The notes under the pieces: generated by a model
Seen by the model: the letters and a program-made list of their open reading frames with translations, nothing else
Databases searched by the model: none
What the model was told of the DNA's origin: nothing
Source: Phycisphaerae bacterium
GTDB taxonomy: Bacteria > Planctomycetota > Phycisphaerae > UBA1845
NCBI GenBank assembly: GCA_013360585.1
Contig: JABWBH010000027.1
Coordinates: 24,657-88,656, forward strand
Direction of reading: 5' to 3'
DNA length: 64,000 nt
Translations under genes and position numbers: made by a program
Shown: in pieces, positions 25,281 to 31,058 of the stretch
Numbering within the stretch: position 1 is the stretch's first letter
Layout: every line of letters starts with the position of its first letter

Positions 25281-26585
25281 TCAGGCGTCGAAGCTGCGGA
25301 CGATGACGGCGTCATTCTGCCCGCCGAAGCCGAAGCTGTTGGACATCGCCGTGCGCACCGGATGCGGGCGCGCCGCGTTCGGCACGTAGTCCAATTCGCA
25401 GAAGGGGTCCGGCGTCTCGTAGTTGATCGTCGGGGGGACGACGCCGTCGCGGATCGCCAGAATGCAGGTGATCAGTTCGACGACCCCAGCCGCGGCGATC
25501 AGGTGTCCGAGCATGCTTTTTACGCTCGAAATCGGGACGAGGGGGGCGCGATCGCCGAAAAGCCTGCGGATCGCCAGCGTCTCGATCTTGTCGTTTTCCT
25601 GCGTGCCCGTGCCGTGCGCGGAGATGTAGTCGATGTCGTCGATCGCAAGCCCCGCGGTCTGAAGCGCCATCCGCATCGCCGCGATCGCGCCGCGACCCTC
25701 CTCGTGAATGTCCGTGATGCGGAAGGCGTCGGCCGTCGATCCGAACCCGACGATCTCCGCGTAGATCTTCGCGCCGCGCGACCGGGCGTGCTCCAGTTCC
25801 TCGAGGATGATCATTCCCGCGCCTTCACCGAGGACGAAACCGTCGCGGTTGCGATCAAACGGACGGGAGGCGCGCGGCGGATCCTCGTTGTGCGTGGACA
25901 GCGCCGTCAGGCGGTTGAACCCGGTGACGCCGAGCGGGTGAATCATGCTGTGCGTGCCCCCGGAGACAACCGCGTCCGCGTCGCCGTGACGGATCATGTG
26001 CATCGCTTCGCCGATCGCCTGCGTGCTGGCGGCGCAGGCCGTCAGCGTGTTCAGGCTCGGACCTTGAACATTGAAGTGAACCGCCAGGTGGCTGGCCGCC
26101 AGATTCGGATCCTGTTCGAGTTCGTTGACCGCGTTGAGCCGCTGAAGCGCGCGGCGCGCCCAGCGGATCGTGTCCAGCGGGATGGCGCGGCCGGCGTCGT
26201 CCCGACAACCGGCGACCGCCGCCTCGGCGAAGGCATCGAAGTCGATCGGACCTTCTCCGCCGCCCAGATAAATACCGATCCGCGCCGGATCCGCGGGAGG
26301 GGTTCGGTCGAATCCCGCGTCCTTCCACGCGATGTGTGCCGCGGCGAGCGCGAACTGGGTGTTGCGGCTCGCGCCCGCGTGCGCATCCGCCGCGGGACCG
26401 AGGAAATCCGCCAACCGGAAATCCTTCACCTGTGCGGCGAAGGTCGTCGGATACGCAGCGGCGTCGAAAAGCTCATTCCGGCTGACGCCGCTTTCCCCGC
26501 GCAACAGCCGCTTCCAGACCGTCTCGATCTCGTGTCCGAGCGGCGTCACCCAGCCCAGCCCCGTGATGACCACCCGGCGTGACAT
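25281..26585 (-). CDS. fabF: beta-ketoacyl-ACP synthase II (FabF-like, canonical Cys-His-His)
   Basis: LTACAAS (Cys), SAHGTGT (His) and KSMLGHLIAAAG (His). Confidence 0.9.
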   Translation of the reverse strand: MSRRVVITGLGWVTPLGHEIETVWKRLLRGESGVSRNELFDAAAYPTTFAAQVKDFRLADFLGPAADAHAGASRNTQFALAAAHIAWKDAGFDRTPPADPARIGIYLGGGEGPIDFDAFAEAAVAGCRDDAGRAIPLDTIRWARRALQRLNAVNELEQDPNLAASHLAVHFNVQGPSLNTLTACAASTQAIGEAMHMIRHGDADAVVSGGTHSMIHPLGVTGFNRLTALSTHNEDPPRASRPFDRNRDGFVLGEGAGMIILEELEHARSRGAKIYAEIVGFGSTADAFRITDIHEEGRGAIAAMRMALQTAGLAIDDIDYISAHGTGTQENDKIETLAIRRLFGDRAPLVPISSVKSMLGHLIAAAGVVELITCILAIRDGVVPPTINYETPDPFCELDYVPNAARPHPVRTAMSNSFGFGGQNDAVIVRSFDA

Positions 26586-26588
26586 GCC

Positions 26589-27920
26589 TTATTCCTCAAT
26601 CCGGCGCACGACCAGCGCCGCCACCTGAGAACCCGCCAGTGCATACGCAGCGCTGACGAAAACGCTCAACCGCGCATCCGCCGGATCGCCCGAGGCGAAG
26701 CGAAACCCCGGCGCGGATGCGGCGTTCAACGAGGGCGGGACCGTCCGGTGATGCAGCGACAGAACGCCGGTCGCGAAGTCGATCGCACCCGAACCGGCGC
26801 CGTTGTTTCCCAGCGATCCCTTCACACCGACCGCCCAGGGCTTTTTCGCGGCATCGCCCAGCGCCGCGTTCCAGCCGGCAAGCTCCGACGCATCGTACGC
26901 CGGTATTCCCGCGCCGAAGGGGACGATCAGGTCGACGTCGTCCGGACGCACCGACGCCTCCTTCATCGCCGCACGCACCGCGAGTTCGACGGGGCGACCC
27001 GTCGGATCCGGACGGGACCAACTGTGCGCATTGCTCGCCGCGCCGAACCCCACGACTTCACCGTAAATCCGCGCTCCGCGACGATGCGCGTGCTCCAGCG
27101 CCTCCAGCACGATCAATCCGCCGCCCTCTCCCGCCACGGTTCCCGCTGCGTCCTCGCTGAAGGGGCGGCAGGCGCGCAGCGGATCGGCGTTCGAAGCCGT
27201 GTTCAGCTTGCCCAGCAGCAGCGGCCGGGTCAGCGCCATCGGGTTCACTTTGCTTTCGGCGCCGCCGCAGATGCACAGGTCCGCCGATCCGCGCGCGATC
27301 GTCCGGTAGGCCTCGCCGATCGCCAGGTGGCTCGACGCCTCGCCGCAGGTGATCGTGTTCGAGTTCGCCTGCGCGTCATGCACGATCGTCACATGACAGG
27401 CGAGCATGTTCGGAAGGAACTTCAGCAGCCACAGCGGCGTCAGATTCTCCATCCCGGCCGATCCCCACAACCGGTGGCTGAACCGGCCGGCGTCGTCCAC
27501 CGCGGTGTTCAAGGCGCCGGCCAGCTCCGCCAGATCGGCGCACACCAGACCCGCCCCGATATTCGCCCCGAACCGCGCCGGATCCACGTTGGGCGGTCCG
27601 GGCGACTCCCCGCGTCCGATCAGACACGCCGTCACCAGCCCCGCATCCTTCACCGCGTGATACGCGCACACCACCGCGATCTGCGTGTCCCGCGACATGA
27701 CCTTCGCCGCTTTGCGGTAGGACTTCGGGATCGCGTCATTCAACGAGAATTCAGGGAGTTCAGCCGCGATCCGGCAGGGCAGGCCCTCCGCATTGAACGA
27801 GCGCACCGGTCCGACGCCGCAACGTTGCGCCAGCAGCGCCTCCCAGTACGCTTCCGCGCCGATGCCGATCGGCGTCGCCACCCCCAGCCCGGTGATCACG
27901 ACTCGGCGCGATCCGCTCAT
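26589..27920 (-). CDS. beta-ketoacyl synthase-like partner lacking both catalytic histidines (CLF-like)
   Basis: KS fold throughout. Cys retained (NTITCGEASS). At the His positions it has VPFGAGIP (His->Phe) and KGSLGNNGAGSG (His->Asn). Confidence 0.8.
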   Translation of the reverse strand: MSGSRRVVITGLGVATPIGIGAEAYWEALLAQRCGVGPVRSFNAEGLPCRIAAELPEFSLNDAIPKSYRKAAKVMSRDTQIAVVCAYHAVKDAGLVTACLIGRGESPGPPNVDPARFGANIGAGLVCADLAELAGALNTAVDDAGRFSHRLWGSAGMENLTPLWLLKFLPNMLACHVTIVHDAQANSNTITCGEASSHLAIGEAYRTIARGSADLCICGGAESKVNPMALTRPLLLGKLNTASNADPLRACRPFSEDAAGTVAGEGGGLIVLEALEHAHRRGARIYGEVVGFGAASNAHSWSRPDPTGRPVELAVRAAMKEASVRPDDVDLIVPFGAGIPAYDASELAGWNAALGDAAKKPWAVGVKGSLGNNGAGSGAIDFATGVLSLHHRTVPPSLNAASAPGFRFASGDPADARLSVFVSAAYALAGSQVAALVVRRIEE

Positions 27921-28429
27921 GCGCCGCCCCCGCGGACCGCGTCGCCGACCGGTTGAAACGAACGCAGCAACGTCATGAAAGATTCGGTAAACACAAAGTT
28001 ATGCCTCGGCAATCCGGAGACCTGCGCCGCCCCGACATGCGAAAACATCAGGTCGACCCGCCCGAACTCCTCTCCGTTGCGACGGACAACGCCGCGCGTC
28101 GTCGCGCCGTGATCCTCCAGCGTCTCGATCCTCGCCTCGTACGCCAGCGTGTCGCCCGGGACGGCGTAGTCGTCAAACGACGCCGAGCGGATTTTCGCCA
28201 GAATCACGTTCTCGCGGAAATCTCGCGCTTGCCCCACCAGGATGCCCGCCGTCTGCGCCATCCCCTCGATGACCAGCGACGCGGGCATGACCGGAAATCC
28301 CGGAAGGTGATCGTGCAGGTGCTCCTCGGCGCGCGTGACGTTCTTGACCGCCACCGCACGGCACCCGGGCTCGAACTCGACAAACTTGTCGATCCAGATC
28401 CAGCGCATGAAAACCCCGCCGGAACGCAC
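27917..28429 (-). CDS. 3-hydroxyacyl-ACP dehydratase (FabZ-like hotdog)
   Basis: EEHLHDHLPGFPVMPASLVIEGMAQTAGIL carries the His and Glu of FabZ/FabA. 4-nt overlap with the downstream KS-like gene. Confidence 0.8.
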   Translation of the reverse strand: MRSGGVFMRWIWIDKFVEFEPGCRAVAVKNVTRAEEHLHDHLPGFPVMPASLVIEGMAQTAGILVGQARDFRENVILAKIRSASFDDYAVPGDTLAYEARIETLEDHGATTRGVVRRNGEEFGRVDLMFSHVGAAQVSGLPRHNFVFTESFMTLLRSFQPVGDAVRGGGA

Positions 28430-28516
28430 CCCCGACCGGACCGCGCGAGCCGCCGGCTCCGTTCCTGTCGCAATGCGGCACGTCTCCCGCAGACGGCGGG
28501 GCGCCCAAGGCGAGAC

Positions 28517-28912
28517 TTACGCCGCCCGAAGCTTCTGCTCAACGTAATTGACGATCGCATCCACCGTGAAAAGATCGCGGATGCGCTCGACCTGAGGATC
28601 TTTCTCGAAATCGGACAAGTCCGCATGCGGCATCGCCGACCGCAGCTTGCTGATCCCCTCGTCGGTCATCTTTCCGTTGTCGACGTAATCCGGATTACTG
28701 AGCACTTCCTCGGGAAACAACTCCGAGCGGTTGACCTTGATTCCGAACGCCTTCTCCAGGCGGAATACGATGTCGAGAAAATCAATGCTCTCGGCGCCCA
28801 GATCGCCTTGAAGCGTGGCCTCGGGCGTGACCTCCTCGCTGTCAACGCCCAGCGCGTCCACCAGCACGTCACGGACCCTGGAAAGCACCTCGTCGCGCGT
28901 CGCCGTTGTCAC
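28517..28912 (-). CDS. acyl carrier protein with a ~45-aa insertion before the last helix
   Basis: GTG start at 28912 preceded by ggagg. LQGDLGAESIDFLDIVFRLEKAFGI (phosphopantetheine Ser). Helix IV FTVDAIVNYVEQKL comes after an unusual insert. Confidence 0.75.
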   Translation of the reverse strand: MTTATRDEVLSRVRDVLVDALGVDSEEVTPEATLQGDLGAESIDFLDIVFRLEKAFGIKVNRSELFPEEVLSNPDYVDNGKMTDEGISKLRSAMPHADLSDFEKDPQVERIRDLFTVDAIVNYVEQKLRAA

Positions 28913-29025
28913 TTCGTCACCTCCGTCTGAACCGATCCGGACGACATCAGAACGAAACCTTAGCCCGCCCGCCGAAAGCGTCCCGCGGCGGCATGCCCGC
29001 CTTCGAGGTCTCACGGCTGAGCCCC

Positions 29026-29493
29026 TCAGGCCTGAAGCGCCCGAAACCGCTCACGCATCACCGAGACAATATGTCGATCCGTGTCTTCGTATCCCGGTCC
29101 CCTTGCCGCCGCCGTCAAGTGAGACAGCACGAACCGACCTCGAACGACTTCCTTCCCGCCACAGGCGCCCGCCCCGGAGAATTCACTCTCCACGCCCTCA
29201 AGCCGCCGAGTCTGCACGTCCACCTCAAGCACGTCGCCGGGGCGGACGAAGCTCTTATATGTAATGTTTTTCGCCTCTTTGAGCAATACAAGGCTCGGGG
29301 CAAAATCCAGCGACGACCGCACTAACCACGCGGCGGCCTCCACCATCGCCTCCAGCATGAACACGCCCGGCAGCACCGCAAACGTCGGAAAGTGATCGGC
29401 AAGGTACTCCTCGGCCGCGGACACCGCCTTCACCGCGCGCAAACGCACGCCGGGCTGCACCTCGACGATCCGATCCAGAAGTGCAAAACGCAT
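29026..29493 (-). CDS. second hotdog-fold dehydratase (FabA/FabZ-like)
   Basis: Internal ATG 29493 gives MRFALLDRIVEVQPG...AEEYLADHFPTFAVLPGVFMLEAMVEAAAW. The upstream part of the track ORF overlaps rpsA and is not credible. Confidence 0.7.
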   Translation of the reverse strand: MRFALLDRIVEVQPGVRLRAVKAVSAAEEYLADHFPTFAVLPGVFMLEAMVEAAAWLVRSSLDFAPSLVLLKEAKNITYKSFVRPGDVLEVDVQTRRLEGVESEFSGAGACGGKEVVRGRFVLSHLTAAARGPGYEDTDRHIVSVMRERFRALQA

Positions 29494-29504: not shown

Positions 29505-31058
29505 TCAGCCGCGCCCAAGACCGCTGCCCATCCAGTCCCAGTCCGAACTCAGTCCGCCGCGCCGCGGACGATCCTTCCGCTCCGCCCGACGACCGGACGC
29601 CGCCGCCTCGATCGCTTCCGGCGCCGCGCTGTGCGCCGGCTTCAACGACAGCGCGATCCGCCGCTTCGGTCCGTCCACGCTGAGCACGCGGGCGTCCACC
29701 TCCTGCCCGACCTTCACCACCTCGTCGCACGTCCGGACACGCTTATCCGAAAGCTCGGAGATATGAATCATCCCTTCAACGCCGGGCGCAACCGCCACGA
29801 ATACGCCGAACGTCTCCAGCCGTGAAACCGTCCCCTTCACCGTCATCCCCGGCGCATAACTCTCGATCACCCCCGCCCACGGATCCGGACGCGCCTGCTT
29901 CATCGACAGCGCCATCCGCCGCTTCCCCGGCTCCAGCCGCAACACCGTCACGTCCACTTCGTCCCCGACCTTGACCGCGTCCGCCACCGAACTGATCCTC
30001 GACCAGCTCATCTCGCTGATCGGGATAAGCCCTTCAACCCCCTCCTCGACTTCCGCGAACGCCCCGAAGTCCGCAACCCGAAGCACCTTCGCCCGCAGCG
30101 ACATGCCTTCCTGAAGACGGGTCTCGATCCCGGTCCACGGATCCGGCCGCGCCTGCTTCAGACCCAGCGAAATCCGGTCCCGCTCACGGTCGATCTTCAG
30201 AACCTTGACCTCAACCTCCTGCCCGACGTCCACGATGTCCGTGACTTTCCCCACCGGCCGCCAGCTCAGATCGCTGATGTGGATCAGCCCTTCCACCCCG
30301 CCAAGGTCTACGAAGGCGCCGAAGTCCGTCACATTGCGCACGCGCCCGGTCCGCACCTGCCCGATCTCAAGCTCCGTCAGCAGCACCGCCTTTTTCTCGG
30401 CGGCCTCCTTCTCCAGAACTCGCCGTCGGCTCAGCAGGAGGTTCTTCCCGCGGCGGTCAACTTCGGTGACCTCGCAGCGCACCACTTCGCCGATCAGGAC
30501 CGAGATGTCCTTCATGAAATGAAGATCGACCTGCGACGCGGGCAGGAACGCCCGGATGCCCTGCACGTCGACTTCCAGCCCGCCCTTGTTCAGACCCGTG
30601 ACCCGCCCCTCCACCGTCATTCCGCGGTCCAGATTCAGCCACGTCGCCCGCTGCACCGCGCCTTTGCGGCTGCAAACCCACAACCCCTGCGACTCGTCGT
30701 GGCGCTCGACGACAACGTCCACCCGGCGGCCCGCGCTTACGTCCTCATTCTTCCCGAAGTGATTTCGCGGAACGACGCCCTGATCCTTCACTCCGAAATC
30801 CAGAAAAACATCCTCGCCGCGCGTTGCAACGACTGTTCCGGTGACTTCGGCGCCTTTCTCCAGCCGCCGGACCGCCACCGGCGCGTTCAATCCGCCGCTC
30901 AGCTCATCCAGGTCTTCAAGCGTCATGTGCGCCATCGCGTTCGCCACCTCGCGGTCGATCTCCGCTTGCGAGGAACCCGGATCCGGAAGGGATGGCTCAG
31001 ATGCATGCGCTCCCGCGGGCCCTGGGACGCTGGCGGGTGTTCCCGGTTGTTCGTTCAT
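29505..31058 (-). CDS. rpsA: 30S ribosomal protein S1
   Basis: 517 aa with repeated S1 domains (G.V..V..FGAFV.L...EGLIHISE pattern, several times). Confidence 0.9.
   Translation of the reverse strand: MNEQPGTPASVPGPAGAHASEPSLPDPGSSQAEIDREVANAMAHMTLEDLDELSGGLNAPVAVRRLEKGAEVTGTVVATRGEDVFLDFGVKDQGVVPRNHFGKNEDVSAGRRVDVVVERHDESQGLWVCSRKGAVQRATWLNLDRGMTVEGRVTGLNKGGLEVDVQGIRAFLPASQVDLHFMKDISVLIGEVVRCEVTEVDRRGKNLLLSRRRVLEKEAAEKKAVLLTELEIGQVRTGRVRNVTDFGAFVDLGGVEGLIHISDLSWRPVGKVTDIVDVGQEVEVKVLKIDRERDRISLGLKQARPDPWTGIETRLQEGMSLRAKVLRVADFGAFAEVEEGVEGLIPISEMSWSRISSVADAVKVGDEVDVTVLRLEPGKRRMALSMKQARPDPWAGVIESYAPGMTVKGTVSRLETFGVFVAVAPGVEGMIHISELSDKRVRTCDEVVKVGQEVDARVLSVDGPKRRIALSLKPAHSAAPEAIEAAASGRRAERKDRPRRGGLSSDWDWMGSGLGRG

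Follow-up and report, generated by a model that had tools for sequence, protein, structure and literature searches.

The 64,000-nucleotide stretch of Phycisphaerae bacterium contig JABWBH010000027.1 analyzed here (the window) carries, on the minus strand of positions 25281 to 29493, a compact cassette of five genes encoding two FabZ-like hot-dog dehydratases (DH1 and DH2), an acyl carrier protein (ACP), and two FabF-like ketosynthases (KSs), one with an intact active site (KSy) and one with a dead one (KSx). We think it probable that these genes form a private acyl-chain elongation line, resembling type II fatty-acid synthase (FAS II), that stands beside the ordinary fatty-acid synthase of the cell and is conserved across many Planctomycetota. 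The genome (97% complete) has a plsX-fabH-fabD-fabG-acpP-fabF operon on contig C5, whose FabF scores 597.7 bits, above the model cut-off, and a housekeeping FabZ on contig C21 (C21:59255-59662; 186 bits, also above cut-off), lying within a 482-aa open frame that fits a bifunctional LpxC/FabZ arrangement. Because fabH, fabD, fabG, acpP, fabF, and fabZ are all present elsewhere in the genome, the cassette is a second system, and the full operon on C5 and the FabZ on C21 lead us to reject its identification as the housekeeping FAS II. An earlier reading of the stretch from its letters alone (the sequence-only reading) had taken the genes for a dedicated set unless the genome held no other fabF, fabZ, or acpP; all three exist elsewhere, and the dedicated set stands.

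The genes follow one another in the order DH1 (155 aa; 29026..29493), ACP (131 aa; 28517..28912), DH2 (163 aa; 27917..28408), KSx (443 aa; 26589..27920), and KSy (434 aa; 25281..26585). These coordinates bear out the earlier description of five co-oriented genes with gaps of -4 to 113 nt: the DH1 ATG lies 11 nt past the stop codon of rpsA (29505-29507), 113 nt separate DH1 from the ACP, whose GTG start at 28912 has a GGAGGTGA site in front of it, and 108 nt separate the ACP from DH2. The DH2 stop and the KSx start overlap by 4 nt (ATGA, -4) and KSx is followed by KSy after 3 nt, junctions that suggest translational coupling. None of the five proteins (0/5) reached an equivalog cut-off in Pfam and NCBIfam scans, KSy coming nearest. 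No ketoreductase (KR), enoyl reductase (ER), acyltransferase, or thioesterase gene adjoins the block, as had been noted from the sequence; its neighbors are genes for RNase E/G, ribosomal protein S1 (rpsA), and a pseudopilin. Related cassettes can include a short-chain dehydrogenase/reductase (SDR) gene, and queries of this type retrieved from the present genome, as best matches, the FabG on C5 and a paralogue on C24; a dedicated cassette SDR or KR was not found in it.

The ketosynthase pair, the carrier protein, and the dehydratases

KSy has the canonical Cys-His-His triad that had been read from its sequence, aligned as TACAA / AHGTGT / GHL. It scores 478.8 bits with the TIGR03150 fabF model (cut-off 493.75), passes only a subfamily model, NF005589 (471 vs. 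387 bits), and is 45% identical to the FabF of its own genome. KSx scores 258.8 bits with the same fabF model and has, in E. coli FabF numbering, Glu for Cys163, Phe for His303, and Asn for His340. The active-site columns of KSx were aligned by HMMER against the T. thermophilus FabF 1j3n, by MAFFT with ~90 family members, and by MAFFT with E. coli FabF. All three alignments put Glu in the Cys163 column (CGEAS vs. TACTS), and the Cys of KSx sits two residues upstream of the catalytic column, in the Thr column. The sequence-only reading had described a ketosynthase that lacks both His residues and keeps its Cys: Phe and Asn indeed occupy the His columns in these alignments, but retention of the catalytic Cys is rejected.

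Most members of the KSx family have the motif C-[GA]-[ED]-[AV]-S, with the upstream Cys invariant in an alignment of 45 cassette orthologues; the first His position is variable (F, H, M, or Q), and at the second Asn and Asp predominate. The FabF paralogue RB4527 of R. baltica, with Glu163 / His298 / Asn333 (Rattray et al. 2009, Table 2, PMC2649909), has a site of the same type as KSx, and RB4527 and RB3714, together with essential KS paralogues of Planctopirus limnophila, probably belong to the KSx and KSy families. Cassette-family proteins appear in passing in two published studies, in an active-site table (PMC2649909) and in a group of essential KS paralogues (PMC10632474); neither study goes into the cassette or the insert-bearing ACP or assigns a function. 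Our literature searches found no description of the cassette, and a review also makes no mention of it.

The AlphaFold2 model of KSx (predicted local distance difference test, pLDDT, 93.9; predicted TM-score, pTM, 0.93) matches 1j3n with TM-scores of 0.87 (normalized to the query) and 0.94 (normalized to the target), and the 50 top-ranking structures in its fold search are without exception FabF or mitochondrial β-ketoacyl-ACP synthase (KAS) chains. By sequence, KSx matches FabFs at 150-214 bits and the actinorhodin chain-length factor (CLF), 1tqy_B, at 135 bits. In a maximum-likelihood tree that includes FabF and FabB, a check proposed with the sequence-only reading, the cassette KSy clade (support 100/100) and KSx clade (100/99) stand apart from both, and the window proteins fall inside them; all ketosynthase trees were midpoint-rooted. 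The KSx clade also includes orphan dead ketosynthases of Planctomycetaceae-type genomes, and near its base lies a fully catalytic relative, rep_P0157 (TACSA / AHGTST / GHL). We confidently assign KSx a predicted FabF fold and a clade of its own, and judging from its active-site residues it is the presumed non-catalytic partner of KSy. A likeness to CLFs or to ApeC, the dead partner in aryl-polyene (APE) synthesis, had been drawn from the sequence; it holds in that an intact KS is paired with a dead one, but KSx belongs to neither family. It is rejected as a CLF on account of Glu rather than Gln at the Cys site, FabF matches that outscore 1tqy_B, and fold matches that are all FabF or KAS, and as an ApeC-family member on account of its FabF fold, its own clade, and the absence of APE hallmark genes nearby.

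Other ketosynthases came to light alongside this pair. Beyond the window, the same genome encodes a third ketosynthase, an orphan whose triad is intact (C83:40321-41532; AACAA / THATGT / GHA); it forms a very long branch beside E. coli FabB and has no dehydratase or ACP gene adjoining. Our representative library and metagenomes contain natural single-chain fusions of an intact and a degenerate KS, in either order (P0183, P0188, P0226, P0249, P0252, P0258, and P0259). We discarded these as Rosetta-stone evidence for KSx and KSy: the dead halves are only 24-33% identical to KSx and belong to other families, so the fusions are uninformative on the KSx family.

The ACP has Ser in the motif DLGAESIDF and is matched by PF00550 at residues 8-62 only. 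Its alignment to T. maritima ACP falls in two pieces, residues 2-61 on positions 4-63 and residues 109-124 on positions 65-80, and the ~47 residues unaccounted for form an insert between helix III and helix IV; the insertion of ~45 residues noticed in the sequence is therefore real. The protein is below cut-off in all ACP equivalog models (TIGR00517, 48.4 vs. 70.45 bits). AlphaFold2, with 61 sequences, gives a pLDDT of 93.8 and a pTM of 0.87 and predicts an insert made up of short helices with a small hairpin. None of the 50 best Foldseek matches in the PDB covers the insert, the best of them being ordinary ACPs of 72-101 residues that match the four-helix core only. The window ACP shares 44-69% identity with orthologues across families when aligned from end to end with the insert. 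Throughout the phylum the insert is conserved with a pattern, RxELFP...GKxTxxG...MPxAD...DLFTV, that is present in the window protein.

Both dehydratases are recognizable as FabZ-like (PF07977, 53.6 bits for DH1 and 49.6 for DH2) and fall short of the FabZ equivalog models, DH1 with 72-79 bits against cut-offs of 113 and 155 and DH2 with 77-79 bits (TIGR01750 fabZ: 72.5 and 77.0 vs. 155.15 bits). They are 35% identical to each other. Compared with FabZ, both lack an N-terminal segment, of ~35 residues in DH1, and each ends in a conserved C-terminal tail of its own, that of DH2 reading FSH...ENFVF. Both retain the catalytic His and Glu, as DHFP and MLEAM in the aligned DH1 orthologues and as DHLP and VIEGM in DH2. 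One DH1 orthologue, from a Tepidisphaerales metagenome-assembled genome (L126), has a Gly/Pro/Val-rich, tandem-like insertion of ~50 residues (GGNVSGGNVPGGDMSGGHVPAGH...) in a loop of the hot-dog fold.

Distribution in Planctomycetota and orthologues in Planctopirus limnophila

We find the insert-bearing ACP in at least 596 species genomes, using a scan with the ACP alignment and one genome per species, and the best 80 matches are all labeled Planctomycetota except for one "Anaerolineales," one unclassified "Bacterium," and one "uncultured bacterium." When the phylum is sampled evenly, it is present in 117/383 high-quality Planctomycetota genomes and 82/280 genera, and the 117 genomes include 53 of this organism's class. 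The survey of the five-gene block across the phylum was restricted, for gene order, to the 57 loci with enough flank; 48 of them keep the order DH1-ACP-DH2-KSx-KSy, KSx is missing from 3, and 6 are split or incomplete. The split cassettes occur in several Phycisphaerales (L121, L129, L130, L135, and L137; G001, G117, and G136), with the ACP alone or together with DH1 and DH2 at one place and a KSx-KSy pair at another; two of the split-cassette genomes have a KSx-like open reading frame (ORF) within a frame open for ~685 codons.

Extra genes are lineage specific: a FabG-like SDR gene between DH1 and ACP, an aminotransferase gene upstream, or a B12 radical SAM gene, the last inside the cassette in just one related locus, L053. 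There the B12-binding radical SAM gene (L053:12076-13377, genome G097) lies between DH1 and the SDR; it is reminiscent of the radical SAM gene in anammox Cluster I, although the KS genes of the two are not orthologous. Several lineages have genes for an alpha/beta-hydrolase, a GH3 enzyme, and methyltransferases directly downstream of the cassette. Unbiased clustering of the flanking ORFs at 80 loci reveals no conserved tailoring, acyltransferase, or export gene, just lineage-specific housekeeping neighbors (serS, GNAT, ABC-2, and band-7-like). The cassette is a widely conserved set among housekeeping genes, not a sporadic biosynthetic cluster.

In the window the upstream flank consists of rpsA (29505..31058, minus strand; NF005208, 446.6 bits vs. 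a cut-off of 368) and a pseudopilin gene, and the downstream flank of an RNase E/G gene on the other strand. A scan for promoters and terminators yielded none above the shuffled expectation and no terminator-like site within the gap between rpsA and DH1, and on this layout rpsA and the cassette are probably on one transcript. The sequence-only reading had placed the block directly behind rpsA and proposed a survey of that linkage. It turns out to be a local accident, with rpsA upstream of the cassette in 1/66 related loci; we reject the linkage as a conserved feature, and rpsA is an upstream neighbor outside the conserved cassette.

Orthologues in P. limnophila DSM 3776 (genome G437) connect the cassette to published transposon sequencing (Tn-seq). 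The DH1 orthologue (44.5% identity) at 4043312-4043815 has the coordinates of Plim_3124 in the source data of PMC10632474, and it is followed in the locus-tag series by Plim_3123, the cassette SDR; Plim_3122, the insert-bearing ACP orthologue (58.4% identity); Plim_3121, the DH2 orthologue (43.0%); and Plim_3120, the KSy orthologue (58.8%). A KSx-family orphan encoded at 2.198 Mb has Glu in place of the catalytic Cys; its position corresponds to Plim_1694, a gene scored as essential (PMC10632474). In the paralogue tables of that Tn-seq study, all five stand-alone KS genes, all three FabZ-like genes, and both ACP genes are listed as "only essential" (Rivas-Marin et al. 2023, PMC10632474). Most of the cassette orthologues are scored essential, a statement that covers neither Plim_3124, whose scoring is inconsistent, nor the SDR.

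P. limnophila has a second dead ketosynthase (L169; G437 C1:3333204-3334472; LDEAS / AHAAGL / GNS), ~1 kb from its housekeeping FabF gene (3335507-3336619) and by position probably Plim_2562, scored essential in the published Tn-seq. The place of this gene near FabF implies that dead KS partners may also serve the main fatty-acid synthase in some planctomycetes.

Proposed function and comparison with known systems

In the private elongation line that we propose, chains would be carried on the dedicated ACP, whose 47-residue insert probably excludes the housekeeping enzymes or docks the cassette's own. KSy would condense, most likely as a heterodimer with KSx by analogy with amxFabF2/amxFabFmut of anammox bacteria and with KS/CLF pairs, with KSx either molding the acyl pocket or priming the chain. 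DH1 and DH2 would dehydrate the 3-hydroxyacyl-ACP intermediates, one of them possibly isomerizing as well, and the two may form a hetero-oligomer. Malonyl loading, keto-reduction, and any enoyl reduction would be borrowed from FabD, FabG, and FabI, with the FabG-like SDR within the cassette presumably dedicated to keto-reduction in the lineages that have it. The product would be an acyl chain, most likely destined for an envelope or membrane lipid.

Several observations weigh against this proposal. Essentiality calls in a tight operon can be polar effects, and Plim_3124 is scored "unclear" in another Tn-seq table, with insertions at its 3' end only (PMC10632474). The KSx-family gene lies outside the cassette in Planctomycetaceae-type genomes (3/57 loci; P. 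limnophila), and a different KS might therefore be the partner of KSx, or KSx might work by itself. Nor does the cassette include an acyltransferase or thioesterase gene that would indicate where the chain goes. Finally, about two thirds of Planctomycetota genera are without the cassette, so its function must be dispensable or replaced in them.

A bolder form of the proposal, which we offer as a possibility somewhat short of an even chance, is that about 30% of Planctomycetota genera, including all listed genomes of this class, depend on an undescribed second acyl line with a new class of insert-bearing ACP, a FabZ-derived dehydratase pair, an independently arisen live/dead KS pair, and an essential envelope lipid as its product. 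If this is true, the live/dead pair arose independently of actinobacterial CLFs, of ApeC, and of anammox FabFmut. The cassette shows that the pairing of a live with a dead ketosynthase is not limited to makers of ladderanes or polyketides and has arisen more than once in fatty-acid-type systems. The insert-bearing ACP, an architecture without counterpart among its 50 best PDB fold matches, may show how a cell separates two ACP-dependent pathways. Planctomycete envelopes and membranes are unusual and their lipid biochemistry is poorly known, and most of the cassette is scored essential in a tractable model, P. limnophila.

The closest mechanistic parallel comes from the same phylum. Cluster I of the anammox bacteria, a candidate ladderane cluster (amxACP, amxFabZ, amxFabF2, and amxFabFmut), also sets a live FabF-like KS beside a dead one, with a private ACP and a FabZ-like dehydratase, and the best PDB matches of DH1 and DH2 include 7qv0 and 8ayb-8ayi, which we take to be anammox FabZ structures. 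The amxFabF2/amxFabFmut pair is an obligate heterodimer of the KS/CLF kind, which carries out malonyl-ACP decarboxylation and works preferentially with its own ACP (Granatino et al. 2026, bioRxiv 10.64898/2026.05.19.726425); PDB 9s5h appears to be this pair. The two systems differ in the dead site, Glu/Phe/Asn in KSx versus Val/Asn/Glu in amxFabFmut, and in content, as the cassette encodes a pair of dehydratases and its ACP is enlarged by the 47-residue insert, and Cluster I has phytoene-dehydrogenase-like and B12 radical SAM genes, both absent from the window. We recognized anammox genomes by frames of ~810-826 aa that match the hydrazine-synthase alpha domain, and one of their KS pairs shows exactly the Val/Asn/Tyr/Gly/Lys/Glu active-site pattern reported for Kuste3606 (Rattray et al. 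2009, PMC2649909). The tree sets the anammox live/dead pairs in clades of their own, distinct from those of KSx (100/99) and KSy (100/100). Identity between KSx and the anammox ketosynthases does not exceed 30%, and no genome of the anammox-like families f36 and f98 figures among those listed with the insert-bearing ACP. On these grounds the anammox heterodimer is a mechanistic precedent of independent origin and not an orthologue; the tree rejects orthology with Cluster I, a reading that is now scarcely credible. The Pfam HZS_alpha domain itself is not anammox specific, matching in 71/401 Planctomycetota genomes, some with at least 11 matches, in large non-anammox proteins.

A parallel in gene order is offered by the rhizobial acpXL-fabZXL-fabF2XL-fabF1XL(-adhA2XL-lpxXL) cluster, a dedicated very-long-chain line that stands beside FAS II and borrows its reductases. 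As in the core of the cassette, a private ACP gene is followed by a FabZ-like gene and two FabF-like genes, and a line making long or very long acyl chains for lipid A or some other envelope lipid would agree with the long 3-hydroxy acids borne by planctomycete lipid A and with the essentiality of lipid A genes, like that of the cassette, in P. limnophila. We nevertheless judge this destination unlikely. The cassette has an extra dehydratase gene upstream of the ACP, a folded ACP insert, and one clearly dead KS, and no LpxXL-type acyltransferase or AdhA2XL-type alcohol dehydrogenase gene is linked to it. Rhizobial-type models, which stand here in place of a direct comparison with rhizobial sequences, score the cassette proteins far below cut-off, as does the 93-position ACP model NF005079 (44.9 vs. 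83), which we believe to be of the AcpXL type. Cassette-free planctomycetes, moreover, presumably make lipopolysaccharide too.

Type II polyketide synthase (PKS) systems with a KS/CLF pair, such as actinorhodin ActI and ishigamide Iga11/Iga12, likewise couple a live KS with a dead homologue, and the APE systems, with ApeO:ApeC and ApeI:ApeP, add a pair of hot-dog dehydratases and a discrete ACP. The APE core consists of ApeO:ApeC, ApeI:ApeP, an ACP, and a KR. This part list matches that of the cassette, which could then encode a type II PKS of the polyene or aryl-polyene kind that makes a conjugated polyene lipid or pigment with a KS/CLF pair, two dehydratases, an ACP, and a KR but no ER; no cassette variant seen has an ER, and NCBIfam gives weak matches to polyketide-type KS models. 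The KSx gene adjoins that of KSy across a 3-nt gap here and is next to it in 48/57 loci, and it lies elsewhere in 3/57 and in P. limnophila. Against such a product, PKS- and APE-type KS models score far below their cut-offs and KSy nearly reaches the fabF equivalog score; KSx has Glu or Asp, not Gln, at the Cys site and is nearest FabF in fold and sequence, with the actinorhodin KS and CLF ranking much lower. The cyclase, aromatase, starter-loading, and export genes of PKS and APE systems are missing from the cassette, and we found none of the APE hallmarks (starter-adenylating enzyme, KR, thioesterase, acyl- and glycosyltransferases, Lol/MMPL exporter) in the window and none recurrent in the 80 loci. 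The setting among housekeeping genes (rpsA, serS) and the essentiality of most of the set in P. limnophila are also unlike a pigment pathway. We consider a polyene product very unlikely; nothing specific to polyenes was found, and beyond the part list the polyene module suggested in the sequence-only reading receives no support.

The genes directly downstream of the cassette in several lineages (alpha/beta-hydrolase, GH3, and methyltransferases) encode enzymes of the types represented by OlsI, OlsH, and OlsG (PMC12493201), and the cassette could accordingly supply a special fatty acid, for example a 3-hydroxy acid, for acyl-amino-acid lipids of the GH3/OlsH type such as ornithine lipids. The insert-bearing ACP and GH3 co-occur with an odds ratio of 3.9, uncorrected for phylogeny (both in 53 genomes, ACP only in 64, GH3 only in 50, and neither in 234), and GH3, hydrolase, and aminotransferase homologues are present on other contigs of this genome. 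We find this role doubtful all the same, as 64/117 cassette genomes are without GH3, just 13/53 genomes of this class have it, and a hydrolase or GH3 gene adjoins the cassette in only 6/57 loci; OlsH, besides, requires neither ACP nor CoA as acyl donor (PMC12493201). A general dependence on GH3/OlsH aminolipid synthesis is weakened by the 64 cassette genomes that lack GH3, and its scarcity, taken with the donor independence of OlsH, means that aminolipids could be no more than one outlet for the product, in certain lineages.

A last alternative is an oxygen-independent branch for unsaturated fatty acids, as in FabA/FabB systems, in which one dehydratase would isomerize the trans-2 to the cis-3 intermediate and KSy, with KSx, would elongate the cis chain. 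Two distinct dehydratases with a dedicated KS recall FabA with FabB and FabN with FabO, essentiality would fit, many Phycisphaerae are anaerobic, and a FabA equivalog occurs in 0/401 Planctomycetota genomes. Such a branch would not require a private ACP or a dead KS, though, and neither dehydratase has an isomerase-marking sequence feature among those examined. Lineages without the cassette are also without FabA and the two distributions are not complementary, a comparison that is uninformative because no FabA equivalog occurs anywhere in the phylum sample. We regard this branch, too, as an improbable function of the cassette next to the private elongation line. FabA-like domains are nevertheless present in 20/401 of the genomes, none as a stand-alone FabA equivalog and mostly in giant ORFs (2000-3000 aa) that resemble subunits of polyunsaturated-fatty-acid synthases.

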